From IMG/VR virus record IMGVR_UViG_3300031965_000081, positions 1 through 39,962 of that record: a stretch of 39,962 bases of DNA; one strand, 5' to 3'. The number at the start of each line of letters is the position of its first letter. Position 1 is the first letter of the stretch. Made by a program: the position numbers and the translations under genes. Under the pieces are notes generated by a model. That model was not told the DNA's origin and did not search any database. It saw only the letters and a program-made list of their open reading frames with translations. Below, piece after piece: positions 20,184-39,962 of this stretch. The stretch comes from a virus. Lineage: Duplodnaviria > Caudoviricetes.

Positions 20184-20424
20184 GGTTTTTATTGGTTAGG
20201 GTTTGTAAAACATCGTCTATCGCTTGGTTGTAGCCAGTTATTCTGGTCATTTCTTCTAAAGAAGTCTTCGTTATAACATTTGAATATATCTTTTTCTTCA
20301 TCCCCTCTATCTCCTCCCTCACCTCCTCCTCATGTTGGCGTAATTCTTCTTCTCTTATTTTCTGTTTTTCTTTCTCTATTATTTCCCTCACCCCATCCCA
20401 CTCTGCTTTTAGTCCTTTAGTCAT
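20176..20424 (-). CDS. Cassette-array hypothetical protein (LKAEWDGV...ELRQHEEEVREEIE...LQTLTNKNHD)
   Basis: 82 aa ORF containing three repeat classes. Confidence 0.7.
   Translation of the reverse strand: MTKGLKAEWDGVREIIEKEKQKIREEELRQHEEEVREEIEGMKKKIYSNVITKTSLEEMTRITGYNQAIDDVLQTLTNKNHD
20306..20348. repeat. 43-bp exact direct repeat (encodes ELRQHEEEVREEIE), second copy 20840-20882; partial copies 22051-22068 and 22351-22366
   Basis: tctatctcctccctcacctcctcctcatgttggcgtaattctt read at both loci. Confidence 0.95.
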
Positions 20425-20435
20425 AGTGTTTTTCT

Positions 20436-20753
20436 CTAAGCAAACCCCAAATTAGTTTCTTTTAATAACCATTCGCCATTTTTGTTTCTTTCCCAAATTG
20501 CACCTCGTAGTGGATTATCTAGTATTACTTGCCATTTTGCTTTTGGGTCTTTCTTGGCGGATTTTTCAATATCTTTTAGTGTTTTGTATTTTTCCCATTC
20601 TAAATTAGAATCACCTATATAAAATATCTTCCCATTTCTTTTAACATGATAACCACCAAATCCTTGATATAAAACTTCATTCATATCTAGAATATCCTCA
20701 TTACCAGGACAACTTAGACAACCGCCTCTATAAATTGTTTTCTTTTTAGTCAT
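20436..20753 (-). CDS. Cassette-array hypothetical protein
   Basis: 105 aa, starts MTK in junction repeat. Confidence 0.7.
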   Translation of the reverse strand: MTKKKTIYRGGCLSCPGNEDILDMNEVLYQGFGGYHVKRNGKIFYIGDSNLEWEKYKTLKDIEKSAKKDPKAKWQVILDNPLRGAIWERNKNGEWLLKETNLGFA

Positions 20754-21054
20754 GGTTTTTGGTTAGGGTTTGTAATGCTTTTAGAATAACCTGTCGGTTT
20801 GTCATTGGAGTTTCTCGGTATATTTTTGCAATTACCTTTTCTATCTCCTCCCTCACCTCCTCCTCATGTTGGCGTAATTCTTGGAAGACATACAGCTCAA
20901 TTCTATCTGCCACCTCTTGGAGTTCCCCTGTCGGCATAATGATGTCGCCCGCCCTTGTATCCCCTTGCGACATAAATAATACGCTAACATAGCCTAATTC
21001 CTCTTGGAGCTTTGTTCTAAAATCTTTCTTCTTCTCTATTTGTGTTTTGGTCAT
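20746..21054 (-). CDS. Cassette-array hypothetical protein (ELRQHEEEVREEIE...LQTLTKNHD)
   Basis: 102 aa. Confidence 0.7.
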   Translation of the reverse strand: MTKTQIEKKKDFRTKLQEELGYVSVLFMSQGDTRAGDIIMPTGELQEVADRIELYVFQELRQHEEEVREEIEKVIAKIYRETPMTNRQVILKALQTLTKNHD

Positions 21055-21581
21055 TTTTGTATATAAGTTACACCATTGATAATAAGTTCTAAGGGTAAGG
21101 TGTCTGAAAGTTCAGAGTTACCGAGTTCAGAGGACTTGCGGAGAGAAAAGACAAAGCGAAGGTTGGCAAACCACTGAAGGCCGGGATAGCCCCAAAAGTC
21201 GCGCAGTCCCAAATCGTCGCCATCGGTGTCCAGATAGAAAAGCCTCGGCTCGCCGCCAGTCGAAATAGGTTGCATTCCAATTGTTAGCCATTCTACTATG
21301 GGTTGGTCAGTATACTCATTCCTAAGATATACCCCTATCTCAGCAGGACATAATTCTAATCCTTCTTGTTCTGCTCGGTCATATATCTCTTTTGTGGTTG
21401 GATTATAGTCAAACCAATCACTTAGTGTAATTTTTACCAGTTCTACCTCCTTTTCTTCTGTTGAAAATTCAATTTTCTTTATCATCTCCTGTGCGTAGTC
21501 TGATACGTAGTGTTTTTTCAACTCTTTTAGTGCTTTTTGTTTGTCTCCTATTTTTATTGTTTTCCAGATTGTTTTAGTCAT
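21051..21581 (-). CDS. Putative CLec-fold DGR-target-like protein
   Basis: GLELCPAEIG...YTDQP core; adenine-poor C-terminal segment ending W..NLRFVFSLRK. Confidence 0.55.
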   Translation of the reverse strand: MTKTIWKTIKIGDKQKALKELKKHYVSDYAQEMIKKIEFSTEEKEVELVKITLSDWFDYNPTTKEIYDRAEQEGLELCPAEIGVYLRNEYTDQPIVEWLTIGMQPISTGGEPRLFYLDTDGDDLGLRDFWGYPGLQWFANLRFVFSLRKSSELGNSELSDTLPLELIINGVTYIQK

Positions 21582-21586
21582 GGTTT

Positions 21587-21757
21587 TTATTGGTTAAGAA
21601 TTTCATATTCTCCCTTAAAATCATAAGCGTCTTTTGGCTTCCACTCCCCACATTCACAATAATAGGGTAAGATTTTACTACCATTTCCTCCTAAGATATT
21701 TTTACATTTTGGACAAGTTGGCATAACGAACTTTTTTGTTTTGTAGATTATTTTCAT
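21587..21757 (-). CDS. 56-aa Zn-ribbon-like protein (MKIIYKTKKFVMPTCPKCK...YCECGEW...)
   Basis: Hand translated; AAGGAG upstream; ends in junction repeat. Confidence 0.55.
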   Translation of the reverse strand: MKIIYKTKKFVMPTCPKCKNILGGNGSKILPYYCECGEWKPKDAYDFKGEYEILNQ

Positions 21758-21784
21758 ATCTCCTTAGTCATAATATAAGGTTAG

Positions 21785-21931
21785 TTAGTTTTTAATTTCA
21801 CAAAACTTTCCCCAAGCTATACATAGACCTAGTTTTTGTGCTCGCTTTTTATCTTCTTCTGTTAATTCTCTACTGCAGGTATGGTTCTTTACGTCACTTG
21901 CACAGAATGTTTTGTCTTTGTAACATAGCAT
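21785..21931 (-). CDS. 48-aa Cys-rich protein (MLCYKDKTFCASDVKNHTCSRELTEED...)
   Basis: Hand translated; starts right after junction repeat. Confidence 0.55.
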   Translation of the reverse strand: MLCYKDKTFCASDVKNHTCSRELTEEDKKRAQKLGLCIAWGKFCEIKN

Positions 21932-21932
21932 A

Positions 21933-22411
21933 TTATTTATTGGTTAGGTTTTGTAATTCTTCAACTGATATATAGCTCTTTCCTTGCTCTATTTCTTGTA
22001 CTCCCTCGTCATTTTTGTACCACGTAAATTCAGTGAGTATCTTATCTACTACCTCCTCCTCATGTTGGGAGAGGGCAAGCTCTACAAGTTTCTCTGGTGT
22101 GCGGTATTTGGGTGCAATCGTATTCCAGCCTGCTAAAGTTAATAGCCGAATTTATCACACTCTTTGTTATTACAATAAAGTGCTTTATTTGTGTCACTAA
22201 TTCCAAAAATATCAAAAGCTGAAGCCGAGCCATCTGAATTAGCTGTTTCCATTTTCTTGTTACAACTTGCACACTCAAACCACTCTTCTCTTACCACTAT
22301 TTCTTTCTTGTGAGCTTGCTCTACCATTTTGGTTATTTCTTCGCTTGCTATCACCTCCTCCTCATGGTGGGTCGCCGCCTCAATATCACATTTTTTTACT
22401 TCTTGTTTCAT
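21933..22411 (-). pseudogene. Frameshifted cassette-array gene (CxxC...CxxxxC; two HEEEV repeats; ends LQNLTNK)
   Basis: ORF stops at 22139 (KFGY*), but the -1 frame continues TLAGWNTIAP...ALSQHEEEVV...EELQNLTNK* to 21933. Confidence 0.6.
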
Positions 22412-22450
22412 ATATCTATTTATTTCTTACTTCCCCAGTGACGGTGGGGG

Positions 22451-23023
22451 TTAAAGCCATTTAATAATAGGACTTCCGACATAGTCCTTTTCCCATACGA
22501 ACCAAGCGAACGCCATAGTGCTACTCATCTTCTTGCCTGTAATCTCATCATTTTCTTTGCCGTTTCTCATTGGTTGTTGCCGTTTCTTGAAGACATAAAC
22601 AGTTTTTAGGGGCGTGGTCTGTAAGAATGTCGCTCGTTTCTGTCCTTCAAGTGCTTGTAATTTCCCGAACATTATTACTTTTCTATCAGATACTTTTAAC
22701 GCTTTCTCAAGAAATTCTTGAAACAGATTAAATGGAGGATTTGTAATGACTGTATTGTAATTCTTCAGATAATTATGTTCTAAAAAGTCTATACCACCAG
22801 ACCCAAAACCTCTATCTATTAAATCTGTTGAATATGTATGCTCTCTGTCCAATAATTTACTTATATGCCCCTCACCACAGGCTGGCTCTAAGGCTGGGTA
22901 TATAATCTCCTCTACTTCTAAAAGTGCTTTTGTACTATCGGGGTGAGTAGCATAAAAGTCGTTTTCCATTCTACCTCTTGAGGGATTGCCTCCTGCTATT
23001 TTTCCTCCTTGTCCTTTTATCAT
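22451..23023 (-). CDS. DNA N6-adenine (amino) methyltransferase
   Basis: NDFYAT, LEPACGEGHI (motif I), VITNPPF (motif IV), FAWFVWEK. Confidence 0.85.
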   Translation of the reverse strand: MIKGQGGKIAGGNPSRGRMENDFYATHPDSTKALLEVEEIIYPALEPACGEGHISKLLDREHTYSTDLIDRGFGSGGIDFLEHNYLKNYNTVITNPPFNLFQEFLEKALKVSDRKVIMFGKLQALEGQKRATFLQTTPLKTVYVFKKRQQPMRNGKENDEITGKKMSSTMAFAWFVWEKDYVGSPIIKWL

Positions 23024-23074
23024 CTTTATTCTCTATTTACTTCCCCAGTTCGACTGGTCTAGGGTGATTATTCA

Positions 23075-23590
23075 TTATTCACTGCGAGAAAAGCACACAC
23101 CCAGAGCGACGTCGTCCCGAACCCTCGGATACCACCTATTCACATTCGCGCCCCCCTCGACAAAGAAACCGACAAACAACAGCAAACCGGAAGAATCACG
23201 GGAAGACGTCCAAGTATACTTATAACTTGTCAGCAAGTCTCTAAACTCTTGGTAGTTAGCAAGTAAATATACGACCTCAGGGAAGTTCAGCATTTCTTTG
23301 TCGCCTTTTAAGACGTTACATTTATTCCACGATTTTCCTTTGTGTAAAAGTTCAAGGTCAATGGTTCTCTTTCCTTTACGGGTTTTTTCTGTGGTGAAGA
23401 AGTCCTCATCTTTATACCAGTCAATGTTATAGAGGAGTTTTCCGCCTGCAACTTTGTTGTCGCATTGTTCCATTATCTCTTTGGCGGTGAGTTCGGGAAA
23501 GTCTACTGTGAGAGTCGTTGGTTCGCTCTTTACTAGTTCGCTTTCCAACTCGTCCAATAATTCTCTTATTTTTTGTATTTTTGTTTTCAT
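23075..23590 (-). CDS. Putative CLec-fold DGR-target-like protein
   Basis: C-terminus YTWTSSRDSSG...VGFF...NVNRWYP....ALGVCFSRS; adenine-poor DNA. Confidence 0.6.
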   Translation of the reverse strand: MKTKIQKIRELLDELESELVKSEPTTLTVDFPELTAKEIMEQCDNKVAGGKLLYNIDWYKDEDFFTTEKTRKGKRTIDLELLHKGKSWNKCNVLKGDKEMLNFPEVVYLLANYQEFRDLLTSYKYTWTSSRDSSGLLLFVGFFVEGGANVNRWYPRVRDDVALGVCFSRSE

Positions 23591-23591
23591 A

Positions 23592-23789
23592 TTATTTTAA
23601 CTTATCTAATAATCTTTTTTTTGACTTCCAAAAGCTGGTGATTGAGACTCTTTTTTCTGTTTTTCCTGTCGCAATGTTAGGGAGATTTGATACTCGTTTA
23701 CTGAATTTCACCTTACCAATTCCAAAATCTATCTCGCCTGATTCTATTGCTGACTGTATTGCTTTTTGTTCTTGTTCTTTAGATAACAT
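23592..23789 (-). CDS. Possible divergent HU/IHF-like DNA-binding protein
   Basis: GEIDFGIGKVKFSKR...NIATGK...FWKSKKRLLDKL resembles the HU arm region. Confidence 0.35.
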   Translation of the reverse strand: MLSKEQEQKAIQSAIESGEIDFGIGKVKFSKRVSNLPNIATGKTEKRVSITSFWKSKKRLLDKLK

Positions 23790-24039
23790 GTTTCATTCTT
23801 AGACTTAATTGTTCATGTCTTGTCGGGATATACCTGTAAGACGCTGTTTTCTTTTTTCCTAAATAATCTACCTCTAACTCTCCGTCTTCTGTCATTTCTC
23901 GGAGGCGTCTTGAGGCATTGCTAGCTTTGTACCCTCTTTCTAGTGCAAATCTTTCTATCGCACCGCCGTTTATGTATCCGTTTTCTCCTCTTAGATACTT
24001 AACTCTAAAATTTGATAATATCTCTTTACGAAGACTCAT
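23779..24039 (-). CDS. Winged-helix DNA-binding protein
   Basis: GYKASNASRRLREMTEDGELEV wHTH-like pattern. Confidence 0.55.
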   Translation of the reverse strand: MSLRKEILSNFRVKYLRGENGYINGGAIERFALERGYKASNASRRLREMTEDGELEVDYLGKKKTASYRYIPTRHEQLSLRMKHVI

Positions 24040-24379
24040 ATTCATCATCTAACCTACCTTGAAACTTTTTAATAATTTTTATCTGTTCTCCTAAAAGTTC
24101 ATATAAGTTTTTGATTTTCTGCCATTCTTTGTATTGGTCGCTTGCTTTTGCTCTTGCTTCGCTTTCAGCGTTTGATTTTCCGTCATCTAAACCTTGTACT
24201 ATCTGTATTCGGTATAACTGTTCCAGGTTTGACACTTCACCTGTTAAATAAGCCATGCACCCTATAAAGTTTTCCGCTTCCATAAAAGCGGTGCTTGCTT
24301 CGGGTATCGTCTTATAATCCCTTGCTTTCGCTAGTAACCCTAGTGCTTGCTGTGTTATTTTTTCGGTGATTTTATTCAT
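24026..24379 (-). CDS. Helical hypothetical protein in recombination module
   Basis: 117 aa, coupled to SSB-like gene. Confidence 0.65.
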   Translation of the reverse strand: MNKITEKITQQALGLLAKARDYKTIPEASTAFMEAENFIGCMAYLTGEVSNLEQLYRIQIVQGLDDGKSNAESEARAKASDQYKEWQKIKNLYELLGEQIKIIKKFQGRLDDEYESS

Positions 24380-24741
24380 TAGAAAGGTACTTCTCCATCT
24401 ATTCCTTCGCTTTCTGCCGTTGGGTATTTGTTTGGCTGAAGGTTAAGAAGCATGTTTTTAATATCAAATAATGCGTGTCTGATTTTAGTTAATTCTTCTT
24501 GAATTTTATCAGCTTTCTTTGGGGTTGTGAAGTTTAGATATTCTTTTCCATTAAAAGTCTTTTTCTCTATCGTTACTTCTACTTCGTCGCCCTCTTTCCA
24601 GTCGGCGTTTTCCTGTCCGCCGAAGCCGTTGATCCACTGATCGCCGTACTTGTCACACTGTATCCCTAAAGATACATACGGCTTACCCGCTTTTGATGTT
24701 TTATCGCTTCTGCTAATTCTCGTGAGTCTAATTGTCTCCAT
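24379..24741 (-). CDS. OB-fold ssDNA-binding-like protein
   Basis: TSKAGKPYVSLGI...WKEGDEVEVTIEK; acidic tail ending DGEVPF. Confidence 0.55.
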   Translation of the reverse strand: METIRLTRISRSDKTSKAGKPYVSLGIQCDKYGDQWINGFGGQENADWKEGDEVEVTIEKKTFNGKEYLNFTTPKKADKIQEELTKIRHALFDIKNMLLNLQPNKYPTAESEGIDGEVPF

Positions 24742-25513
24742 ATTTTTTTTGTATTCTATACTGATAAACTAAGTTTTCAAAAACTTGACCAAGTTCTTTG
24801 AGGGCTTCTCCTCTTAACGTGTATTCTTCAAAATCTTTGTTTAATCTAAGAATTGTGAAGCCATATATATCCTCTTTAATCATTTTTGAATACGCTGATA
24901 GTTGTATTTTGTACGATAGATAAATTCCCTTTCCGGTCTTTAAGTCTCCAATGTATTTCTTACCGTCTATCTCAAACAAGATGTCGGCAGTACCACAGAC
25001 AAATAAGTCTTTATCGTACAATGGTATCTCGGTCGCCAGAAAAGTTACTTCGTTCTCTACAGCCCAGTTATAGATTGGCTCTAATTCGCTCAAAACTGGC
25101 TTCAAGAGCGTTTTTTGGTCAATACATGACTGTAACCACAGCTCTAGCTCTTTATGGGTGTCTGTTCCCTCTTTAGCACGTTCGTTCTTGAAAGTATTAT
25201 GTCGGGCGTAACACTCCTGTAAAAGGTCTGCATAGTCTTCGTTGGAGAGTTCCGATATATATTCTCTTGCTTCTCCGGCGTACTTCCATAGTTCCTCTTT
25301 GGACGCTTGTTTTTTGTTTCTCCAGCCGAGATTTTCCAGTGCCATTCCCGCCGCCCACCATGTTAGGGGTTTGGGTAGAGTCTCAGAAAGGATAGTCGTT
25401 ACACCTGTCCCCTTCTTCCACTCATCATTTACCTTGATATAGTAGTCGTGTTTGTTTCCCGTGAAATCATAGGCAAATTCTTCATTTACTATTGTTGCTG
25501 TTTCGGGGTTCAT
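24728..25513 (-). CDS. PD-(D/E)XK (Cas4/RecB-like) exonuclease
   Basis: GVTTIL, GTDTH, E...CGTAD...IGDLKTG...IQLSAY. Confidence 0.8.
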   Translation of the reverse strand: MNPETATIVNEEFAYDFTGNKHDYYIKVNDEWKKGTGVTTILSETLPKPLTWWAAGMALENLGWRNKKQASKEELWKYAGEAREYISELSNEDYADLLQECYARHNTFKNERAKEGTDTHKELELWLQSCIDQKTLLKPVLSELEPIYNWAVENEVTFLATEIPLYDKDLFVCGTADILFEIDGKKYIGDLKTGKGIYLSYKIQLSAYSKMIKEDIYGFTILRLNKDFEEYTLRGEALKELGQVFENLVYQYRIQKKYGDN

Positions 25514-25581
25514 AGTATCGCCACGAAAAATAAGATAATAAACACTATTCCCGCTATAAACATTTTTTTATCTGGATTCAT
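25510..25581 (-). CDS. 23-aa single-TM micropeptide MNPDKKMFIAGIVFIILFFVAIL
   Basis: Fills the gap exactly with ATGA overlaps on both sides. Confidence 0.55.
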   Translation of the reverse strand: MNPDKKMFIAGIVFIILFFVAIL

Positions 25582-26018
25582 AGTAGTAATTCTTTATTCT
25601 CATAAATGTTTCCGATGATTTCCTTTTCACTGAAAATTTCTCCGTCATCTGAAATAAAATTAAAGTAATTAACCATTCCGTATCTGTCTTTGTCGCACAT
25701 TGACTGAACACACTCTAAAGAAAAACAACTGTGGTCATAGAACACTTGCCCACACATTTTTAAGTCTCCCCCTAGTTCTCCGTTTGATTGAACCACTTCA
25801 TAGATACCTTTTACTATATCCCCCTCGTATATCTCTTTGCTGTTCTTGTCCTTGAGTCCGGTGTATTGCATAATTTCTATATCTTTAAGTGCAAATCCAG
25901 TGCTATTATTATCAAGCCACGGTATTACACCGCCATATTGAGGAGATATAAGAAAGCTGTCGTCTTTCAAAAATATCCCTTTTTCTTTATCCCACGCTCT
26001 AAATTTAATTTCTCTCAT
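25578..26018 (-). CDS. YopX family protein
   Basis: MREIKFRAWDK...MQYTGLKDKNSKEIYEGDIV...EIIGNIYENKELL. Confidence 0.9.
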   Translation of the reverse strand: MREIKFRAWDKEKGIFLKDDSFLISPQYGGVIPWLDNNSTGFALKDIEIMQYTGLKDKNSKEIYEGDIVKGIYEVVQSNGELGGDLKMCGQVFYDHSCFSLECVQSMCDKDRYGMVNYFNFISDDGEIFSEKEIIGNIYENKELLL

Positions 26019-26268
26019 AGTATTTTTCAATGTCATCATTGACATTTTCCCAATCTTTTAATGTTCCATCCCAAGCTAACCGACCATTAGCATATCCAAC
26101 TAAAGTTAAGTGCTTTAGAAATATCTTTAATTCTTGTGCTAACATAACTTTTTTGAATTTCATCTTAATTCTTTTAGCTATTGGATTGTTATAAAATTTA
26201 TCTTCTTTTTCTTCTGTGGCATTTTGCCATTCCTCTTTATGATGATTGTCTAATGCTTCGTAGTCCAT
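26005..26268 (-). CDS. Hypothetical protein
   Basis: Likely start MDYEAL at 26268 (ATTATT-ATG); the upstream part of the track ORF lies in a structured leader. Confidence 0.6.
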   Translation of the reverse strand: MDYEALDNHHKEEWQNATEEKEDKFYNNPIAKRIKMKFKKVMLAQELKIFLKHLTLVGYANGRLAWDGTLKDWENVNDDIEKYYERN

Positions 26269-26278
26269 AATAATGTTT

Positions 26279-26420
26279 TTTTCTATTCGGCTTACCTCCC
26301 TTACGAGTAGATAAACCGAATAGAAAACGTAAGGTTTATAATGTAGCCCAGCCGGGTTTTCGGGATAGCTCCAGTCGGGACCGAAACGTCCGTACTCACC
26401 CATACCTGCTACGTTATAAA
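26279..26420 (-). ncRNA. Structured 5' leader (multibranch domain plus 19-bp hairpin)
   Basis: 26420-26408 pairs with 26347-26335; 26327-26309 pairs with 26297-26279. Confidence 0.5.
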
Positions 26421-26475
26421 TATATTCTATGTGTTAGCGTTTGTCAAGCGTATTTATAAACCACTATGTGGATAA
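26419..26475 (-). promoter_or_regulatory. Promoter TTGACA-17-TATATT with upstream perfect DnaA box
   Basis: TTGACA at 26447-26442, TATATT at 26424-26419; TTATCCACA at 26475-26467. Confidence 0.55.
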
Positions 26476-26778
26476 CTCATTTCGTTTTTTTGAATCATGG
26501 CAATACTCGCATGAATACTTTGATGTCCACAGAAGATCACATACGGGACAATGAAGTGTAGTGTCCACTGCTCGCTTCTTGTATTCACTCTTCGGCTTGA
26601 GCTTTGGATTTTTACTTCCGGTTTTGCCTATACCTGTATATCTCTGCCAGTGATAAACAACCGATGAATGGTCTATACCGAATATTTTAGCTATTTCAGG
26701 GAAAGACATACCCTCCTTGCGGAATTGTATCATTTTCTTTATCGCCAGTTTTGATTGTGTTCGTTGTCCGTGTTTCAT
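26464..26778 (-). CDS. HTH protein with C-terminal CxxC...CxxC
   Basis: GMSFPEIAKIFGIDHSSVVYHW HTH; start MKHGQR by ATGA overlap. Confidence 0.7.
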   Translation of the reverse strand: MKHGQRTQSKLAIKKMIQFRKEGMSFPEIAKIFGIDHSSVVYHWQRYTGIGKTGSKNPKLKPKSEYKKRAVDTTLHCPVCDLLWTSKYSCEYCHDSKKRNELST

Positions 26779-27029
26779 ATTCTCAAAGAAAACCACCAAG
26801 TGCTTGAGAAGTTCTTCGCATCCTTGCAATATGACAAAAACCAATAAAGGTCTTGGGTTGATAGATGGCTCATTTTAATTGCGTAGTATTTTGCTCCTAA
26901 AGGTTTGTATTTGTTTTTGATCCGGTCGCTGTCTAGGATTTCAGTAAACTGTTTTATCAAATCTGCTCTTTCAGATTTTATTTCAGTTTTTTCTTTTTTG
27001 TAGTTTTTTAGAAGTTCAGAGAGTTTCAT
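26775..27029 (-). CDS. Hypothetical helical protein coupled to RNase H
   Basis: Start MKLSELL at 27029 by ATGA overlap with RNase H stop. Confidence 0.65.
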   Translation of the reverse strand: MKLSELLKNYKKEKTEIKSERADLIKQFTEILDSDRIKNKYKPLGAKYYAIKMSHLSTQDLYWFLSYCKDAKNFSSTWWFSLRI

Positions 27030-27478
27030 AGATTTTTCCATAGCATTTGTTTTGTTTCTGTTAAATATTCTCCATTGAATTCTTCTTGGGTTATGCTCGC
27101 TTCCCATTTTGTTTCATCTTTTTCATTGAGCAGTCCAGCGAGGTTAAAATTTCTTCCCTCCCACATAAGATTTATATTTTTCCCTTTTAAGAGAGTTTTG
27201 CACTTCTGCAGGATTTCATATAAGTCGGGTCTGGCTTTTGATTTTCCTTTGTTTGCCCAGGTTAAGCAACACATTGAATCGGTGGAAACAGTGTCGCCTT
27301 CTTTCGCCAGATCTAGTGCTTTTAGAATTCCAAGAATTTCTCCCTCGTTATTCGTGAAACCTTTTTTTCTGATTACTTCACGGCTTATCAATGTACCGTT
27401 TTCATCTGTTATTGTATATCCTCCTCCATATTCGCTTGGATTAGATATTATATTAAAACCATCAGTATAATACTTCAT
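27026..27478 (-). CDS. Ribonuclease HI-like protein
   Basis: YYTDG (D6), TNNEGE (E47), STDS (D67), LMWEGR..NLAG; fourth acidic residue appears replaced. Confidence 0.8.
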   Translation of the reverse strand: MKYYTDGFNIISNPSEYGGGYTITDENGTLISREVIRKKGFTNNEGEILGILKALDLAKEGDTVSTDSMCCLTWANKGKSKARPDLYEILQKCKTLLKGKNINLMWEGRNFNLAGLLNEKDETKWEASITQEEFNGEYLTETKQMLWKNL

Positions 27479-27484
27479 ATTTTT

Positions 27485-27800
27485 ATAACGCCCGACTTAC
27501 CAAAAAAAGAGAGGCATTGCTAATAATTTGACAGACAAGGATTGTATACCTTGAGTAGCTACCACTAATATAGTATCGTGCCTTGAGTGAATGTGATACT
27601 GTATCCTTTTTGCTCTCCGATATACCGAACTTGATTCGGCATTCGTTGGATGGCTGGGTGGAAGTCGGACACCATTTATCCCAGCTTTCGCACGAATGTC
27701 TAATCAAATCCTTTATGTTTCAGATTGAGGACTCAACTCAATCATCCCATTAGGAACTGTTTTACTGCCAAGTCCCTACACGCAGGTTTCTTGTCTTTTG
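27485..27800 (-). ncRNA. Large multi-stem pseudoknotted non-coding RNA upstream of RNase H
   Basis: At least six nested stems plus a 14-bp loop-to-3'-end pseudoknot (see finding). Confidence 0.65.
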
Positions 27801-27809
27801 TAAAAACAC

Positions 27810-27833
27810 AAAAAAACGCCCGAAAAGGCGTTT
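27810..27833 (-). terminator. Intrinsic terminator/attenuator
   Basis: AAACGCC-TTTTCG-GGCGTTT followed by a U tract. Confidence 0.7.
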
Positions 27834-27925
27834 ACTTAAATACTCTGTCCGCAACCGCAAGTGATTGACCACCAGCGATGCGGGTGCGGAAACAATATTC
27901 AAATATCTTACTGGTGATCATTCAC
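27834..27925 (-). promoter_or_regulatory. Pseudoknot leader: 5' segment complementary to loop of long hairpin
   Basis: GTGAATGATCACCAG (27925-27911) pairs with CTGGTGGTCAATCAC (27875-27861) in the loop of hairpin 27904-27834. Confidence 0.65.
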
Positions 27926-27927
27926 CT

Positions 27928-27968
27928 ATTATATCACACTCTGATCCTCGTCAAAGGAGTTTTCCACA
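27928..27968 (-). promoter_or_regulatory. Extended -10 promoter (TTGACG-15-TATAAT, with TG extension) and adjacent DnaA-box-like TTTTCCACA
   Basis: TGTGATATAAT 27938-27928; TTGACG 27954-27949; TTWTNCACA match at 27960-27968. Confidence 0.6.
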
Positions 27969-28004
27969 CATGTTCATTATTTTCTATTAAGCCATGGAAA
28001 CTAT

Positions 28005-28379: not shown

Positions 28380-28386
28380 AAATTTA

Positions 28387-30844: not shown

Positions 30845-30846
30845 AT

Positions 30847-31121: not shown

Positions 31122-32186
31122 TTATACTAATAAACTTCTTGTGATGGGGCCGACGATTCCATCAACTGTTACTCCTTTTGACCGCTGAAAATCTTGAACC
31201 GCTTTTCTTGTAACAGGTCCAAAAAATCCAGTGGAAGCCGAAGTTAAAGAATAGAACCCAAAATACTTCAGGAGATCTTGTAGATTGACTACTTGTGGGT
31301 CATTCATTCCGTATCTTAGAGTTTTTGTTATAAGCATTGGTGGCTTGTTTGGTTCTGGCTCTTGTGTATCTCTCCAGTTATTAAATAAGTCTTCTACATC
31401 CGCACAGAAAGTCATTCTGGCTTTTAAATAGTCTTCTGAGATAAACCGAAGTCCGTTTACTGTGGAGCTGTGTAGTCCCCAAGAGTCTTGTGTGAAGAGT
31501 CCTTTCTTTCCGTTCATTATTCCATAGTCTATTGCTGTTACACTGTGATGAACAATATCTGTATTTGAGTTACTTACTACGGGTTGTGCATTCCATTCAT
31601 TTCTAGGGAAACGATACCAAGTCATTATGGGTTTACCTACGCCGTTTTTTCTTCCGTTTTCAATAGTCCATGCTATTTTTTCAATGTCAAATGGAAGTTG
31701 CACGAAATTTTTTATCCTGAAAGTTTTAGCAACTTGGATATCTGACTCTTTACGGTTTATATCACTACTAATCTCACTCTCAGACTGATTATCAGAAGGA
31801 ATGAGATCATTTAAAGTAAGTCCATAGTCCCTAAGTATGTTAAGAGCATCTACGCCTATCATACCACCTTGTGGCTTATTAGAACGCCTGTCATATCCGT
31901 CTTTGAAAGAAAACTCTATATACTTGCCTTCTTCAAGATAATTTATAATACCGAGCATTAAGGCAGAAGTTGCCATAACACAGGAACTTGAACCGTCTTG
32001 GTTTCTTACGGGGAAAGTATGAATATCCTCAAAGTTCTTTTGTTTCCAATCTACAGGCCCAAAACTCACTACTTCTTCAGCCTTATAATCTTTGTCCTTT
32101 TCCTCCTGCGAACGGTCATCATCTAATGCTCCTGGGAATAAATTTAACTTCTCTACTTCTTTGATTTTTGTTGGATTTTGTTCCAT
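31122..32186 (-). CDS. Putative endolysin: papain-like C1 cysteine peptidase plus peptidoglycan-binding domain
   Basis: VRNQDGSSSCV, HHSVTAIDY, QDSWG; C-terminal LRYGMNDPQVVNLQ...TRKAVQDFQRSKGVTVDGIVGPIT. Confidence 0.8.
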   Translation of the reverse strand: MEQNPTKIKEVEKLNLFPGALDDDRSQEEKDKDYKAEEVVSFGPVDWKQKNFEDIHTFPVRNQDGSSSCVMATSALMLGIINYLEEGKYIEFSFKDGYDRRSNKPQGGMIGVDALNILRDYGLTLNDLIPSDNQSESEISSDINRKESDIQVAKTFRIKNFVQLPFDIEKIAWTIENGRKNGVGKPIMTWYRFPRNEWNAQPVVSNSNTDIVHHSVTAIDYGIMNGKKGLFTQDSWGLHSSTVNGLRFISEDYLKARMTFCADVEDLFNNWRDTQEPEPNKPPMLITKTLRYGMNDPQVVNLQDLLKYFGFYSLTSASTGFFGPVTRKAVQDFQRSKGVTVDGIVGPITRSLLV

Positions 32187-32189
32187 ATA

Positions 32190-32390
32190 TTATTTTTTAT
32201 TAGTAATGTTTTCCTCCCGCATTTCATCTCGACCAGCAGAATGCGCCTCTGACTTTGTTACTGATAATAATTCAGTCATGCGACTGTTAACTGAAGTATG
32301 TATTTTTTTACTTTCACGCCAAGCTAACAAAGCCATAATTGTCGGTGGTGTTGCAGTTATTAAAGATGTTATAATAATTTCCCAGTTCAT
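32190..32390 (-). CDS. Small membrane protein (lysis module)
   Basis: N-terminal hydrophobic segment; IHTSVNSRMTELL. Confidence 0.6.
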   Translation of the reverse strand: MNWEIIITSLITATPPTIMALLAWRESKKIHTSVNSRMTELLSVTKSEAHSAGRDEMREENITNKK

Positions 32391-32716
32391 CGCTTTGGAA
32401 TCCTCTCGGATATGATAGTTGATAATTTTGTAATTTCTGTACTTAATCCTTTCACATCTTCAGCTAGTTTGTCAACCTTAACATCAACGCTGTGCGTGTG
32501 ATTCTGAGCTAAATTAAAAGCGTCTTTAATACTTGTTTGAATTTCTTGAAACTTTCTTTCATTACCCTCTATTTGCCATTGTACTTGCTGTGCAAGCAAA
32601 GCATCTCTTTTATCAGAGTCTATTTGTGGGTTGCGGAAATATTTGTATACACCAAATATTACTCCAAGGATTCCGAGAACGAACATTATATTATTTGGTG
32701 TAAAAAAGTTTTCCAT
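32387..32716 (-). CDS. TM plus coiled-coil protein (lysis module)
   Basis: IMFVLGILGVIFGVY followed by coiled coil. Confidence 0.65.
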   Translation of the reverse strand: MENFFTPNNIMFVLGILGVIFGVYKYFRNPQIDSDKRDALLAQQVQWQIEGNERKFQEIQTSIKDAFNLAQNHTHSVDVKVDKLAEDVKGLSTEITKLSTIISERIPKR

Positions 32717-32717
32717 A

Positions 32718-33833
32718 CTAGCTTATATTAAATACTCGCCTACTTATAACTGGTACATTTTCTTCACTTCCAATAGTGTAGAAAGTATCAGGGTTATTCT
32801 GGTTGGCGTATTCTGCTTCGTGAAGATCGTCATAGTAGTTACCGTCTGAATTCGCGCTCCACCTTGCCCAAGCAAGACTAAATCTCTGTCCGTCTGTAAA
32901 CAGTGTGGTATCGGTTGTTCTTATTCTCCCAAGCAGCATTTGATAAGTTTTCCAATCTCCAGAGGTAGATACTGAATCACTTTCAATTAAAACACCATCT
33001 CCGTAAGATTCAAAAAGATTGGAAGTTGGCTGATGAACATTAGCCAGATATCGCCAAGCTGTTCCGGCAGAAAAATCCCCTGTATCATTATTTAATTGTA
33101 ATGTCCCTCCGTTATTACTGAGCGCGTTCACATCAACCGATCCAGTACCACCCGCAATTGCCCTGACTCTTCCTCCTAATTGATTGGAGCCTATTTTTGT
33201 TAGACACAATGAACTATTTTGACTGTAAACCCATCCACCGTATGATAGACGAACATTAAAGCCAACCGTTACCGTCATCATGCCAGCACCACCAGAAACC
33301 CAGTGTTCTGTGCTTACTCCGGTTTCAATGTATTGTCCAATAGGGCCAGAACCAACCTCAGACCCATCCCATGTTCCTTGAGCAGTCAGATCATTCCCAG
33401 TCCCATTCAGATTGGTAAACTGAGGAGCACTACCTGAGGGATCTTGTTCAAGGTCCCAAAAGCCCATGAAATTTTGAAATGTGTTATTCCGTCCATAAGT
33501 AGCAGTTACTGCAGGGGTTGATGCGCCACTATTGCCATAGTATATGTATATGTCAGTATCTACCGTGCTAGATAGAGTACCGGGGTACCTGAAGAAGAGG
33601 TAGCCGGTCTCTGCTCCGGTATCTATGGCATTGACGTAGGTAGGTACTTCAGTAGTACCGTCACTGGTGGTTATTCTAATATCTCCACCGTCTGACTTTA
33701 CTGTGGAAAAGAAGCTTGATGGTAGAAGAGAGAGATCTACATAGGCAGTATAGTTGTCTAGGTCGCCCGGTACCTTTGTGTTATCAATCGTTACCTTTAC
33801 TCTATATTGCCAATTGTTATTATACCAAGCCAT
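32718..33833 (-). CDS. DUF2341-like plus LamG/ConA-like domain virion protein
   Basis: MAWYNNNWQYRVKVTID, SDGGDIRITTSDGTTEVP, IYIYYGNSGA, EYANQNNPDTFY. Confidence 0.7.
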   Translation of the reverse strand: MAWYNNNWQYRVKVTIDNTKVPGDLDNYTAYVDLSLLPSSFFSTVKSDGGDIRITTSDGTTEVPTYVNAIDTGAETGYLFFRYPGTLSSTVDTDIYIYYGNSGASTPAVTATYGRNNTFQNFMGFWDLEQDPSGSAPQFTNLNGTGNDLTAQGTWDGSEVGSGPIGQYIETGVSTEHWVSGGAGMMTVTVGFNVRLSYGGWVYSQNSSLCLTKIGSNQLGGRVRAIAGGTGSVDVNALSNNGGTLQLNNDTGDFSAGTAWRYLANVHQPTSNLFESYGDGVLIESDSVSTSGDWKTYQMLLGRIRTTDTTLFTDGQRFSLAWARWSANSDGNYYDDLHEAEYANQNNPDTFYTIGSEENVPVISRRVFNIS

Positions 33834-33834
33834 T

Positions 33835-36402
33835 TTAATCTCGTGTAAATTTAATAGTAATATTTATTTCATCCAATGTTCCACTTTGAGCTGTGGTTTC
33901 CACCCAAACCCAACTACTTGCAGGAATAGTTGCATCATTAAACGATGTTACTTCACTGCCTGTTGTTGTAGAGGTTGTGGTTGTTCCTGATGTTACTACC
34001 TCCGCACCGGTAGCACTTCTGTCTGTTCCGTGCCTGATTGTCCAAGTCACAGAAGGCGTAGAACTTCCAAGAAGGACTGCGTTCATTTGAGTAACTGTAA
34101 TAGCGTAATCTGTGAAGAACATAGTTAGGTCTTCTGAATCTGTCGGGTCTTCTATTGTGATTGCTTTTATATATGCATCTGTTATATCAAGAACCCTATT
34201 TCCACCTGCTTGAACTTCCCCTGTTCCGTTTGGTGCAATGTTAATGTCCCCATCCGCCCCGTCTGTAATGGTGATTGTTCCTGTGGTAGCGTTGCCTGTT
34301 TGGAGGATGAGGTCTTGGTTGCCGTTGGATTCTAATGTCCCAGAGGCTGAGCCAGTCCCTATAACAATAACACCAGTACCATTAGGAGAAAGAATTAAAT
34401 CTTCATTAGTTCCGGTTGATATTATATGCGCGCCAGTGCCAGCATTTGTTAATCCTAAGGTTGCAGGGTTATTCGTTGAGTCGTTTTGGTTTATTTGAAG
34501 TCCTACGTTATTTGAGTCATCGGGTACCGTTATCTCTACCGCTCCTGAGTCTGCGGTTATGGTACGGCCACCGCCACCAGAACCAATACCACCGTCATAT
34601 GCTTCATCAAGAGAATTTACATTTGATGATGTTGTAATTACAATTGCACCAGATCTAAATTGCATATCGTCAACATAAAAATGGATATTACTACTTGGAC
34701 TTCCTGAGGTACCCTCACAAGTAAATCTAACCTGATCTATTGTTTCGCCGGGTGGGATATTCATCTCAAATACCGGAATTGAGACACCTTGATAGTTTGA
34801 AAAATCATTAACATCAAGACCAACAGAAGAATTTACTAAAACAAAAGTACCTTTCTGTACTCCTTGATTATAAAACCTAGCAAAAAGTAATCTGTTTCCA
34901 GTCCATTCTGTAAGTTTCATGAAAAAAGTAAGAGCACTATATTGAGATGTATCTATTGCACTTGCACCTTCAAATTCAAAGTAATCAGCACTGGTTAAAT
35001 CTGCATCCACATGAAATGTACCAGTACGAGGGTCTGCTGTAGCGGCAAAATCAACATCACCCCCAGAACCATCTGTACCGTCCCATTCTGTTGATTGTCC
35101 TGCATTTTCCAAGTAAACATCTTCTGTCGTTTCTTGAAGAGAAGTTGCACCAGCCGGAACAAGAACAAATCCCACTTCAACAAAAAGCGTAGGGTCTACT
35201 GATGGTTTTGATGGATTTGCCGCCGGTGTACCGGTTACTTTCCCAACTGTTCCTGATGTATCAAGAGTAATTGCGTCAATACGGTCATTTGTCACATCAG
35301 CGTCATCAAGAGTGATACTTTGTTGTGCGCTTGAATACAGAACTCCTTGAATAAGATATGTACCAGACGTAACAATGAATGTAAGTCCAGTATCATAAAT
35401 AAGTTGACAACCGGAAACAATACGTGTTTCAGTTGATGAAGGAATACCAAGGGAATTTACAAAATCTTCGTATGAAATAACATTATGATGAGTTCCACTA
35501 TCATCATAGAATACTAAAAGGTCTGCAGACGCAATCGTATCTGCAGATAAACCACTTACATCAAGACTTACAGTGGTACTTGCAGAGTCAAGACCTTCAC
35601 CCGCTGTATCAAAAAATAATGATGTAGTATTGTCATAATTTGAAAGATCGTCGTCTACTGTAACAGTTGTAGCATCATTACCAGCATCATCAGCCGCTGT
35701 AATTGTCTCCCCTATAAAGTTAAGATAAGTTCTGGCCGTTAAATCAGACCCCTCTTCTTGGATTGTATGGCCCGCACCTCCCCCACCTCCTGTTAAATCA
35801 AGCGTAGCTACTCCATTTCCAGAGTAAGTTATAGAACCTCCTGAACCCGTTACATTTAATTTAGTTATGGGGCTTTGAGTTATGGTAGTGCCGTCATCTT
35901 GGAAGAGGATAGTCGGACCACCTCCGCCTCCTGTTCCACCTTGACCCAGCTCTCTTGAAGTAAGGAAGTCAGGGACATTTTTAAGTATAGTGAAATCAAG
36001 AGCGTTTTTGATTGGTGAGATTTTTTCTATAATTTGTTCGCCTGTGTCCGGTGAGCCGTCTTTACCGTCTTTACCTTTAAGACCAACGGGACCAACAGGA
36101 CCAATAGAACCAACTTCCCCACGATCACCCTTTACTCCCTTTTCTCCAGTCGGGCCCCTAAGACCTTGAGGACCAATCTCTCCTCTTTCACCAGTTAAAC
36201 CAATTTCCCCTTTTTCGCCCACTTCTCCTTTTATAGTTAAAAGTTCCGCCCCTTCCAATTCCACCTTCATTTTAGTAGGAAATTCTTTTTGCTCTATTCG
36301 TTTAAGGGTTTCATGGGCAACATTCACTGCCTCCGTTGTTTTATCGGTAGCACTAGCTTGTAGTTGTTCTGGGGTTTTGTGGATGTCGTTCAGGTTTTTC
36401 AT
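33835..36402 (-). CDS. Tail fibre / receptor-binding protein with collagen-like repeat
   Basis: 20 consecutive Gly-X-Y triplets (36049-36228); Gly-rich linkers; PNGTG repeats. Confidence 0.75.
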   Translation of the reverse strand: MKNLNDIHKTPEQLQASATDKTTEAVNVAHETLKRIEQKEFPTKMKVELEGAELLTIKGEVGEKGEIGLTGERGEIGPQGLRGPTGEKGVKGDRGEVGSIGPVGPVGLKGKDGKDGSPDTGEQIIEKISPIKNALDFTILKNVPDFLTSRELGQGGTGGGGGPTILFQDDGTTITQSPITKLNVTGSGGSITYSGNGVATLDLTGGGGGAGHTIQEEGSDLTARTYLNFIGETITAADDAGNDATTVTVDDDLSNYDNTTSLFFDTAGEGLDSASTTVSLDVSGLSADTIASADLLVFYDDSGTHHNVISYEDFVNSLGIPSSTETRIVSGCQLIYDTGLTFIVTSGTYLIQGVLYSSAQQSITLDDADVTNDRIDAITLDTSGTVGKVTGTPAANPSKPSVDPTLFVEVGFVLVPAGATSLQETTEDVYLENAGQSTEWDGTDGSGGDVDFAATADPRTGTFHVDADLTSADYFEFEGASAIDTSQYSALTFFMKLTEWTGNRLLFARFYNQGVQKGTFVLVNSSVGLDVNDFSNYQGVSIPVFEMNIPPGETIDQVRFTCEGTSGSPSSNIHFYVDDMQFRSGAIVITTSSNVNSLDEAYDGGIGSGGGGRTITADSGAVEITVPDDSNNVGLQINQNDSTNNPATLGLTNAGTGAHIISTGTNEDLILSPNGTGVIVIGTGSASGTLESNGNQDLILQTGNATTGTITITDGADGDINIAPNGTGEVQAGGNRVLDITDAYIKAITIEDPTDSEDLTMFFTDYAITVTQMNAVLLGSSTPSVTWTIRHGTDRSATGAEVVTSGTTTTSTTTGSEVTSFNDATIPASSWVWVETTAQSGTLDEINITIKFTRD

Positions 36403-39400
36403 AATTGTCTTAATACCTCTTCGGCTGTTAATACTTTGTTTACTTTAAAGTCAGTCATTAAGCCCTCGGCTTTCTTTCTAGTTATTATACCGCTTCTAAC
36501 CGCATTTCCTACTGCAATATCTACAGGAGTGAAAAAGTCGTGCATTGTGTTATCTACTAGCATCAAGTTTTTGTCAGCCGAACTTCCGCCTGCTTTGACA
36601 GGGGTGATATGTTCTAATTTCCACTTGCTTGCCTCGCTCCAAGGAATACCTTCGGAAGCCATTAGGGTTCTTTTATATTCTTGCGAGCCACCTTCATCTC
36701 TAAAATCTACACCATAAAACCTCTGCAGTTCTACAAGGTTTCCTTCTACAAGTCCTAGTTTCTCCTTGGTAAATAATGCCCTAAAGGCGTTGGCTGGGTC
36801 TTTGGTAAATGCTTTGACATAGTCGGAAGCTATGCCTAGTTTGCTTCGGCCATAAGCGTCTTCAACTTTCTTAGTTTCCTTTAGAGATTTCTTAACTTTT
36901 TGGTATGCTTTGTATTCTTCGTCAGAAAGTGCGTCTACCACAGCTTGAGCTTCGTCCTTTTTTCCCTCATCAAGAAGTTTTTGGTTTGACTTCACAACAG
37001 GAAACATTTGTTTTTGTAATTCTAGTGCTTCTTTTTTCTTATCATCAGCTTTTATCTTTTTGTAGGTCTCGTAATCCTCATCTGACAGAGCGTCTACAAT
37101 AGCTTGGGCTTTATCTTCTTCACCTTCAGCGATATGTTCTTGAGCTAAATTGTAAAGTGGAAGGATTCTTTTTTCGTTCTTGCGGTCTGCTTTAGCCTCC
37201 GCAGAATTAGGGTCAAAACTTTCAGAGTATTCAATACCTGCTCGGGTGCTGTATGGTCCGACAATGGGTGCTAATACTTTGTCAATTCCCTCCACAGGAA
37301 AGGCAATATCCCCACCTCTTGTTTCCACAAATCCTTTAGCATTAGCTATCATTCCGTCTACAAAGCGATTAACAGTAGCTGCCCCACCTATTCCTGAAAA
37401 TCCCATTCCCCATTTAGTTAATTCTTTTCTTAGTTTATCGGTCTTTCCTAATTCAATATAGTCTTTACCTGCGTTTAATATGTTTTCAAAATCAGCCAAA
37501 GGTGCAACAGGAGATCTGTCTCCACCCTCATATCCTTGTTCTCTCAATCCTGTAGCAACTAGCCCTTTACCAACAAGTTTATTTACAGTAGAACCAACAA
37601 CGGGTAAAGATGGAATTAGTTTTCTTCCCGTCATTTTTTCAGAGTATTCGTTGTAAACATACGTTCCAACAATAAGTGCGATTATTTGATTTAGGCGTTG
37701 GCTTTTTTCTAAAGGCAGTCCTCCGCCTTGACCAATCAGGGTTCTTGAAAAACGATATAATTCAAAAGCGAATGTCTGAAATGGGGCAACTGCTCTTACA
37801 GATAGATTTTGGAGCATTCTAGGTCTAGCTTCTTTGTTATAAGCTGATTGTGTGCCTTCAATTACATAGTTTGCGAAAGTCTTTTGGTCGGCTGATTTAA
37901 GTCCGAGACGTTTAGCTTCTCTCATTCCAGCTGCACCTGATACTCCTGAAAGCCAGTATTCCATTTGGTCTGACAAGTATGTTGCAAAGGAATTAAAAGA
38001 ATCAATCTTGGTCTTAGCAACCCTTCGTGCTGTTCTATCTACATCACCTGCAAGCGTTGTCCCTAAAGAGGCAGTTCCTGTTTTAAGTCTAAAAGATGAA
38101 AGTTGATTGATGGCTTTTGGATTAAGAGCGAAATCAACAGCTCCACCCACCATATTTTGAAGTCCATGAGTAATCCCCCCAACCCTAGGAAATGTCATTC
38201 CCAAAAAAGAAGCGGGCTGAAAAACAAATGTCCATACTAGGTTTCCAGCAAGGGCTGAGATGTTTCGTGCCTGGTTTATACCGGCAACGATCATTCTTCT
38301 TTTTGTTCCAACATCCAAGCCCACCATTTTGTCTAAAACTCCGGGCTTTCCTACAAATCCACTTCTTATAGTGTCTTCAATAACCTTACTTAATTTATTC
38401 AGCCCGTTGGCTTTGACCACCTGATTGACTGCTTTTAGCTGCTCAATGGTTTTGGTTATGTAAATATCACTAGAGATAGCTTCTAGGTATGAGTCGTAGA
38501 GTTTGAAAAAGTCTGTTTCTAGGTTGCCCATTCCGCCTTTTCTTGGCAAAGCGTGGGGATTTTTCTTGGCGTTTGGAATAATGTAATCAAAAGCATCTGA
38601 GATTGTAGTTCGTTTGTCAGCCCATAGTTTAGACCAAAAACCAGTTTCCTGAAGGTGTGGGGCATAATCTTCAATGTATCCTATCTCTGATTTACCTAAT
38701 GCTTTTCTGACAACATTGGCTTCTTTTCTTAGCCCATCAAGAACCACCCTGACCTCTTCTGCCATTTTAGAAATGTTAGCAGGAACTTTCTTTCCCTCTA
38801 GGGCGTCCATTAAAAGTTTTCCGTTTGCTTTGTTTATTTTGACTCCGTTTCTTTCTGCGATTTTTGTCAGACTATTAACCTTACTAGAAACAAACTCACC
38901 TTTTTGAGCCAAAGTTTCAGTAGTTTGTTCCCAAGTCTTAGCCAGAACTCCAAACCCTTTATCTTTCGCTCCTCGTAGGGTTATATTGTCGGCTTCAAAG
39001 AAAGCATCTCTTAAATTATAAGATTGACCACCAAGTAGTCCTCCTTTAATGTCTTTTTTCAATTCTCCGACTGCTTTAGGTGCGAACACGCCAGTATCAC
39101 GAATGGCATATTTAGTGTCTCCTGCGGGGTTTTTATATGAAGCAACGAAGTCTGCCCCTTCTTTTCTTATTTGAGGGATTAAATCTCTATCTACTCTTGG
39201 CACTCCTAAGTCTGTATTTACAATATCCTTTGTTTGTGATACACTTTTAGAATATGTATCAACATTTTTCTTGGAAACAGATTTTAGCGCAGGTTGCTTT
39301 TTTACTGGTACTAGTGGTGGTTGGCTACCTTTTGGTAGAGTTGTTTGACCTGTGGCATCTCGTGGAATACTCACACCAGACCTTCTAGCCGACTCTTCTA

Positions 39401-39962
39401 ACGAAGGTATCTCGGCAGATGTTCTCATTTGCCTTATTTTTGGTTTCCCCACCCCATCCCACTCTGCTCTTAATTGGGAGCGGGTTTTGAGATTGGTTGG
39501 TTGTATTATCGCACTTCCATCGTCTGAAACTTTCACCAAAACATCAATTTCATCAATACCTGCTTGTTTATACGCAGTAAGACGATGATTCCCATCCATA
39601 ACCTCATTCAAGGCGAATTGTCCTTTTGGATTTATGGTAATTGGTGGCAACTCCTTTCCTTCTTGAATTGCTCTTTTTGCACTTGCGATTGATTCTGTGC
39701 TACCAGTTTGCCCACCGAAAGAAATATCTTTTACCTTCATCTTCTGTAATTCAAAAGTACCCTTAAGGGGATTAGGAGATGTTTCGCCAATACCAGGAGT
39801 TTCAACTTTATTTTTTAGATTTATTAATCTTCCTTGAGACAATGTCTCTCCTTGCCCCTTCACCCACTCATCAAAAGACTGACCACTTTGTTTGGCGGAT
39901 TTGATACTTGAAGTTAGGTTATCTACACCTTTTATGGGTTGGTTGTAAATGTCGGTGAGTTG
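36399..39962 (-). CDS. C-terminal part of ~1645-aa multidomain protein: second ParB/Srx-like cassette, helical core, duplicated DALSDE repeat, C-terminal HNH-like domain
   Basis: LPPITI...VMDGNHRLTAYKQAGIDEIDV; WKLEHITPVKAGGSSADKNLMLV....H; in frame with 1-1501 across the junction. Confidence 0.9.
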   Translation of the reverse strand, partial: QLTDIYNQPIKGVDNLTSSIKSAKQSGQSFDEWVKGQGETLSQGRLINLKNKVETPGIGETSPNPLKGTFELQKMKVKDISFGGQTGSTESIASAKRAIQEGKELPPITINPKGQFALNEVMDGNHRLTAYKQAGIDEIDVLVKVSDDGSAIIQPTNLKTRSQLRAEWDGVGKPKIRQMRTSAEIPSLEESARRSGVSIPRDATGQTTLPKGSQPPLVPVKKQPALKSVSKKNVDTYSKSVSQTKDIVNTDLGVPRVDRDLIPQIRKEGADFVASYKNPAGDTKYAIRDTGVFAPKAVGELKKDIKGGLLGGQSYNLRDAFFEADNITLRGAKDKGFGVLAKTWEQTTETLAQKGEFVSSKVNSLTKIAERNGVKINKANGKLLMDALEGKKVPANISKMAEEVRVVLDGLRKEANVVRKALGKSEIGYIEDYAPHLQETGFWSKLWADKRTTISDAFDYIIPNAKKNPHALPRKGGMGNLETDFFKLYDSYLEAISSDIYITKTIEQLKAVNQVVKANGLNKLSKVIEDTIRSGFVGKPGVLDKMVGLDVGTKRRMIVAGINQARNISALAGNLVWTFVFQPASFLGMTFPRVGGITHGLQNMVGGAVDFALNPKAINQLSSFRLKTGTASLGTTLAGDVDRTARRVAKTKIDSFNSFATYLSDQMEYWLSGVSGAAGMREAKRLGLKSADQKTFANYVIEGTQSAYNKEARPRMLQNLSVRAVAPFQTFAFELYRFSRTLIGQGGGLPLEKSQRLNQIIALIVGTYVYNEYSEKMTGRKLIPSLPVVGSTVNKLVGKGLVATGLREQGYEGGDRSPVAPLADFENILNAGKDYIELGKTDKLRKELTKWGMGFSGIGGAATVNRFVDGMIANAKGFVETRGGDIAFPVEGIDKVLAPIVGPYSTRAGIEYSESFDPNSAEAKADRKNEKRILPLYNLAQEHIAEGEEDKAQAIVDALSDEDYETYKKIKADDKKKEALELQKQMFPVVKSNQKLLDEGKKDEAQAVVDALSDEEYKAYQKVKKSLKETKKVEDAYGRSKLGIASDYVKAFTKDPANAFRALFTKEKLGLVEGNLVELQRFYGVDFRDEGGSQEYKRTLMASEGIPWSEASKWKLEHITPVKAGGSSADKNLMLVDNTMHDFFTPVDIAVGNAVRSGIITRKKAEGLMTDFKVNKVLTAEEVLRQL
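39836..39962. repeat. Terminal direct repeat, right copy
   Basis: Identical to 1-127. Confidence 0.95.

Follow-up and report, generated by a model that had tools for sequence, protein, structure and literature searches.

A giant virion gene with two domain cassettes

The window analyzed here is a stretch of 39,962 nt from the viral record IMGVR_UViG_3300031965_000081 (positions 1 to 39,962), which encodes a terminase, a P22-like portal, capsid and tail genes and GroEL/GroES. Its ends overlap by 127 nt (1-127 and 39836-39962), and the genome is circular with a length of 39,835 nt. Because of this circularity a giant gene within the virion block is read from 1501 to 1 and then from 39835 to 36399, and its product of 1645 aa spans the circular junction. 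Two tandem ParB-like cassettes are located in this gene between left and right boundary motifs, which occur in two types, A and B. A first-pass annotation had linked these boundaries with an array of small early genes in one genome-wide diversification mechanism. The in-frame cassette standard within one gene is real and widespread; the link to the array is not a shown system. The giant gene contains the following features:

1..1501, minus strand: 5' part of the giant gene, in the virion block downstream of the portal, capsid and tail genes; continues at 39835
36399..39835, minus strand: 3' part of the giant gene; open reading frame (ORF) across the junction
567..604, minus strand: upstream half of a type-B left boundary (SISKAKASGQS), fused to the type-A left boundary; 90% over 90 nt against locus L001, stopping at the junction
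526..566, minus strand: type-A left boundary (LVEEARKYKSAEEF), G/T-rich, from motif scans and codon analysis
134..525, minus strand: cargo 1, ParB-like domain; weak PHROG ParB-like matches (E 6e-4 and 8e-4), aligns with other ParB-like cargo
104..133, minus strand: type-A right boundary (KSQLTDIYNQ), C/A-rich; its tail, 114-95, is similar to an array junction
18..70, minus strand: type-B left boundary (AKQSGQSFDEWVKGQ), 53 nt, 100% identity to locus L008; a second copy at 39853-39905 stems from the assembly overlap
39489..39852, minus strand: cargo 2, ParB/sulfiredoxin-fold domain, from an AlphaFold2 (AF2) model compared with ParB-N and sulfiredoxin (Srx) structures and a weak Pfam ParB_N match
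39450..39488, minus strand: type-B right boundary (KTRSQLRAEWDGV); its outer half is the 19-mer discussed below

The AF2 model of cargo 2 (mean predicted local distance difference test score, pLDDT, 62.8) gave structure matches to ParB-N and Srx with a best E value of 2.9e-4. The first left end of the window is a hybrid consisting of a type-B upstream half followed by type A. The same B/A hybrid is present in locus L112 (97% over 61 nt), and the junction after SGQS is also found in genome G005, where it is joined to a different cargo. In L112 (2486-3700) the ParB-like cargo is closed by a stop codon and followed by about 800 nt of small ORFs on the opposite strand and an intact type-B right boundary, whose first base forms the joint with this block, as is usual. 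The circular overlap of the assembly coincides with the type-B left boundary, which is also the branch point of other contigs from the same run (X1). At its C-terminal end (36402-36800, minus strand) the giant protein contains an HNH-like motif; this end is 71% identical to L008 of G005, the closest relative seen.

Cassettes in the giant genes of other phages

Peptide-based scans of giant ORFs identified the motifs EARKYKSAEEF ... KSQLTDIWNKA for type A and SGQSFDEWVKGQ ... KTRSQLKAEWD for type B. The giant genes of other phages and the window together provided 73 cassettes with both ends, of which 56 were A-A, 17 were B-B and none was mixed, and two type-B cassettes had an A-like inner half at the right end. 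The cargo formed 32 clusters, of which the largest has 30 members and about 25 have only one. Among the 44 of these cassettes that were scanned, eight passed the cut-off for ART-PolyVal; matches to GNAT, ParB and SprT were weaker. Tandem junctions were found as A>A (seven), B>A (one) and A>B (the window), with further A>B and B>B junctions in P0007-P0011. In AF2 models of 24 ART cassettes the boundaries formed helices at residues 5-10, 16-22 and 173-185 with a pLDDT of 85-98. Literature searches revealed no description of these cassette boundaries.

The frequency of T at third positions is about 0.4 in the cargo interiors compared with about 0.25 in the flanks, which suggests that the interiors differ in origin from the flanks. 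At three loci (L003, L223 and L305) a stop appears no more than a few codons after a type-A left boundary, as in truncated or decayed cassettes.

The boundaries are conserved at the DNA level

Pairwise synonymous identity at the left and right boundaries was 0.78 and 0.65 for type A and 0.77 and 0.80 for type B, a range of 0.65-0.80 where 0.40-0.48 is expected. This check had been proposed with the first-pass annotation, and its outcome means that conservation is not at the amino acid level only. Conserved ART motifs within the cargo had synonymous identities of 0.41 and 0.43, which equals the expectation. Overall the boundaries are 77-90% identical, with median exact runs of 11-22 nt.

Codon usage was counted with a fully degenerate pattern, using 91 left ends among the matches listed (123 of roughly 150 stretches, which are not independent sequences). 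In these left ends serine was encoded by AGT in 84 of 91 cases and the two glutamates by GAG in 85 and 86; the right partners among the matches listed had TCC for serine (38/44) and CAA for glutamine (45/45). In both types, third positions were G/T at the left (alanine GCC in 0/91) and C/A at the right (leucine CTG/TTR in 0/45, glutamine CAA in every case), again among the matches listed. These counts bear out the description of the left ends as G-rich and the right ends as C/A-rich. Codon runs of this kind were also considered as a signature of boundaries only and rejected, as they are common elsewhere in these genomes: runs of at least 10 codons ending in G/T or A/C occur at 1.6-3 times the codon-usage prediction in all gene classes (22 genomes), and other genes contain 139 G/T-ending runs against 88 expected and 142 A/C-ending runs against 80.

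The partial complementarity of left and right ends, which the annotation had also noted, did not hold up as a specific signal. Duplex energies of cognate, non-cognate and shuffled pairs were -12.2, -12.1 and -11.7 for type A and -19.7, -19.5 and -16.2 (standard deviation, sd, 4.5) for type B. Base-pairing was rejected as a specific signal, since cognate pairs equal non-cognate ones and are close to shuffled ones; pairing was not register-specific either. The consensus fold of the type-A ends was empty for left, right and both ends folded together. The type-B right end forms a modest hairpin (-10.9, shuffles -5.2, sd 3.0).

Cargo exchange at the boundaries

Genomes G024 and G025 share 95% identity over 23,276 nt and yet carry unrelated cargos between the boundaries. 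Their identity stops at the last codon of the left boundary and restarts at the first base of the right boundary. Among cargo pairs with at least 45% identity (up to 84%), alignable flanks were found in none of 13, and some flanks end at a stop codon. One pair with the same cargo in an A and a B frame is 64% identical. Other contigs of 3.5-30.8 kb from X1, the one run that contains DNA of the window and possibly its source, have the same boundaries in different flanks. No empty cassette site was present among the loci compared. Concerning transposon-type ends, left/right pairing was no better than predicted from composition.

The annotation had suggested as possible effectors the encoded PD-(D/E)XK nuclease, SSB-like protein and NinG (genes 24026-25513 and ninG). 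Among 50 cassette-bearing records, 30 of them near-complete, the nuclease was detected in 12, NinG in 14, the SSB-like protein in none and a tyrosine integrase in five; these were single-sequence searches that may miss distant forms. Thus, no candidate enzyme is common to the cassette phages in these records, and the proposed effectors fail as a shared machinery.

The early array contains a copy of a boundary half

The exact 19-mer reported at 20389-20407 and 39450-39468 is indeed present at both positions in the same orientation and is read as AEWDGV in both. The features of the early array that bear on it are:

20389..20413, minus strand: stray copy of the outer half of the type-B right boundary, where the 82-aa gene starts
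20176..20424, minus strand: 82-aa array gene, member of a small family (QHEEEVREEIE ... LQTLTNK) by family comparison
20306..20348, minus strand: 43-nt array repeat, identical to 20840-20882 and with shorter copies at 22051-22068 and 22351-22366
20175..20209, minus strand: A/C-rich gene-end/gene-start junction; related copies at 20744-20775, 21572-21596 and 21929-21956

A repeat of at least 19 nt arose in only two of 150 order-4 Markov genomes, and a chance origin of the 19-mer repeat is unlikely. In viral_contigs the 19-mer occurs twice, and in both cases it marks the right end of a giant-ORF domain. On a matrix trained with the type-B right ends of other phages the array copy scored 31.4 of 35.4 bits; it is identical over 25 nt to the right end of locus L002 and matches the window's own right end at 23 of 25 positions. 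It is in register with the LRQHEEEVREEIE block of the array family itself, and AEWDGV is missing from three relatives of the array proteins. The shared signal in the early array of the window is real, but it rests on one genome and is not shown to belong to a system.

The similarity of 114-95 to 20209-20187 stood in part. Outside the array, this segment matches the junction best (1 of 5308 windows), and it also ranks first among 56 type-A right ends, with an alignment score of 15 compared with a median of 8 for these ends. On the other hand, the alignment contains three gaps and one mismatch, the two segments are read in different frames, and the first half of the segment is a common family variant (IYNQ). 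The resemblance, which was chosen post hoc, is suggestive. The array modules themselves have a G-rich left and a C/A-rich right end around a variable middle. Most simply, the junction is a start context without a Shine-Dalgarno (SD) sequence, and the array repeats probably form a group of their own, made up of duplicated gene ends and start contexts lacking an SD sequence.

Within the array, a start-less open frame at 21933-22151 (minus strand) contains a fourth QHEEEV ... LQNLTNK module directly after the stop of 22139-22411 and is possibly a split or re-initiated gene. The HEEEV repeat at 22351-22366 (minus strand) contains GGAGGTGAT, a strong SD-like word, within coding sequence, in a phage whose genes lack SD sites; SD-like words accompany only 2 of 56 ORFs of the window.

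Interpretation of the cassettes

We consider it probable that the boundaries of these in-frame domain cassettes combine a helical bracket with short homology arms for general relaxed recombination, and that the array copy is a stray half-site. The two cassettes of the giant gene lie between 30-40-nt boundaries coding for short predicted helices. The boundaries likely act as shared homology arms, at which co-infecting phages could swap cargo by short-homology recombination with the frame kept. The left and right helices may pack into a small bracket that can accommodate any domain; this would account for the strict pairing of A ends with A and of B ends with B. Exchange could be carried out by host RecA or varied phage annealing proteins with no dedicated enzyme, and selection for compatibility with a shared cargo pool might preserve the DNA spelling. 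As ends of unlike type are joined in the B/A hybrids, a strict site-specific enzyme seems to fit less well than relaxed homology. In the 82-aa gene, the 25-nt half-site was probably left as a scar by one ectopic recombination event, joined via GGTG microhomology.

Phage Rad52-like recombinases carry out relaxed homologous recombination between short divergent segments, with a pairing minimum of 23-27 bp and a tolerance of about one mismatch in five for Red-beta (De Paepe et al. 2014, PMC3945230). The exchange proposed here is likewise driven by homology, and the boundaries are near these limits in length and identity. It differs in that the homology is incidental there and a standard 30-40-nt pair across unalignable genes here.

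Several points weigh against this explanation. Only one clean swap between close relatives was seen (G024/G025), and the giant genes of this pair also differ in an N-terminal region without such motifs. The median exact runs of type A (11-15 nt) are below the Red-beta minimum, and plain homology leaves the G/T-left, C/A-right polarity unaccounted for. No single-strand annealing protein was recognised among the proteins of the window, and the relatives were not searched for such families. The packing of the helices is deduced, and packaging and injection of the giant protein with the DNA is likely as judged from gene position only. Furthermore, both right ends of the window have look-alikes in one array gene, of which a single scar explains half.

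In a refinement of this explanation, the boundaries would be oriented recombination pads: a break in the cargo would leave G/T-rich 3' tails at both ends (from the top strand at the left and the bottom strand at the right) and favor strand invasion and gene conversion of the cargo. A preference of RecA for GT-rich DNA would be in line with this; a literature search gave no source for this preference. The third positions of both types agree with such pads, but G/T- and A/C-ending codon runs are over-dispersed genome-wide anyway, similar codon spectra could also arise when an ancestor rich in G or C drifts towards AT, and the sequences are not independent. We therefore hold this refinement to be doubtful. 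Equally tentative is a broader reading, in which the boundaries would be oriented signals of an undescribed in-frame domain-exchange standard common to a whole group of phages, probably infecting Patescibacteria/DPANN hosts, with the same G/T-left, C/A-right grammar capturing and reshuffling small accessory genes and the early region feeding cargo into the injected protein.

The genome-wide claim of the annotation, one dedicated system of DNA or RNA signals acting on array and giant gene through the encoded nuclease, SSB-like protein and NinG, is unlikely. In its favor are the real 25-nt copy in the array, the rank of the type-A right end as best non-array match to the array junction, the G-rich and C/A-rich ends shared by the array modules, and the small genes between cargo and intact right boundary in L112. 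However, scans with the matrices, which covered the window and 20 relatives (four without their last 0.2-2.4 kb), gave one strong match outside giant ORFs, the array copy of the window, all others being weak and near shuffle levels. The exact right-end 12-mer was present in 11 of 50 genomes and single-copy in each. The array motifs were absent from the 20 relatives and from viral_contigs (0 matches), and in metagenome_contigs matched only a contig with the window's own positions; a pattern scan for them gave 301 matches, none confirmed. The array module was found in 0 of 50 genomes, a set with no positive control. In a 16-mer right-end scan 16 of the 118 loci among the matches listed fitted the cassette peptide, the rest being mostly unrelated, and no array-type gene start was recognised among them. 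No joint between array and giant gene was seen in contigs of one DNA run, which drop rare variants. Together with the array-protein relatives lacking AEWDGV and the patchy effectors, these results argue against one mechanism; the idea of DNA-level diversification signals is supported for the giant-gene boundaries, with their synonymous conservation and exchange, and not for its extension to the early array.

It is similarly improbable that the motifs are a protein bracket only, with codons shared by recent common ancestry and no role of the DNA. The high-confidence helices, the strict A-A/B-B pairing and the missing pairing signal would fit, but synonymous conservation persists where neither flanks nor cargos can be aligned, even at the protein level, and the swap endpoints lie at the motifs. 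A role of the DNA spelling in the mRNA, by left/right pairing, an internal GTG start after GGAGG or ribosome pausing, is very unlikely: the type-B right end folds better than its shuffles and GTG follows EEF in 63 of 112 left ends, but cognate pairing equals non-cognate pairing, type A has no consensus fold, GTA, GTT and GTC together account for 25 of the 112, which makes the internal SD and GTG start a weak candidate, and SD-like words are as rare as stated above.

Comparison with known systems

Polyvalent proteins of phages and conjugative elements are large, are encoded among virion genes and contain variable ART, ParB-like, GNAT and metallopeptidase domains (Iyer et al. 2017, PMC5512222). 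The giant protein belongs to them by domain content and position, with at least two effector-type domains (two ParB-like cargos, cargo 1 being weak) among virion genes. In the available part of that paper, domain gain is described as accretion without a mechanism, cassette-type recombination is raised as a possibility for one locus, and a DNA-conserved boundary pair with mapped swap points, as found here, is not described. The LPD domains defined there might include the boundary helices. The cassettes offer a concrete and testable route to new effector domains: a short coding boundary pair that is conserved as DNA between genes that cannot be aligned, and at which one swap has been mapped. In addition, many cargos without annotation (about 25 of the 32 clusters are singletons) are set off by the boundaries as candidate effector domains. 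A genome-wide extension would, if true, be more surprising, but rests on one genome.

The nearest analogue of the early array, in a loose sense, are the PeSL cassettes of T4-type phages, intergenic promoter-terminator units that shuffle whole genes by recombination at short repeats (Arbiol et al. 2010, PMC2839356). Short repeated motifs and module shuffling are common to both, but the giant-gene boundaries are coding and move domains, whereas PeSLs are intergenic and move genes. A promoter/terminator cassette was rejected for the array: no terminator-like site was found on its coding strand and no repeated promoter at its junctions (terminators 2, expected 3.3).

In polymorphic toxins a short coding motif also marks the point of effector-domain exchange, and C-terminal effectors are exchanged at VENN or DPxG motifs. 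The boundaries described here flank their domain on both sides, whether it is internal or terminal, and neither orphan donor cassettes nor immunity genes were observed. Integrons contain tandem exchangeable cassettes with attC junction sites and resemble the giant genes in their tandem arrays and repeated junctions; here, in contrast, the units are in-frame domains, and the tyrosine integrase is restricted to five of the 50 records and was not found among the proteins of the window. Left and right ends of type A, folded singly and together, gave no conserved hairpin, and the type-B right end gave a modest one.

Host and further features of the genome

A right-boundary pattern matched 18 GTDB contigs, eight of them with Patescibacteria or DPANN labels. 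As these may be binned phage contigs, a Patescibacteria/DPANN host is only suggested. A second short repeat, ACTGGGGAAGTAA on the coding strand, lies between genes at 22427-22440 and 23037-23050, upstream of two early genes, and was not found in the 20 relatives. The GroES and GroEL genes are located at 17563-19372 and adjoin the terminase genes.

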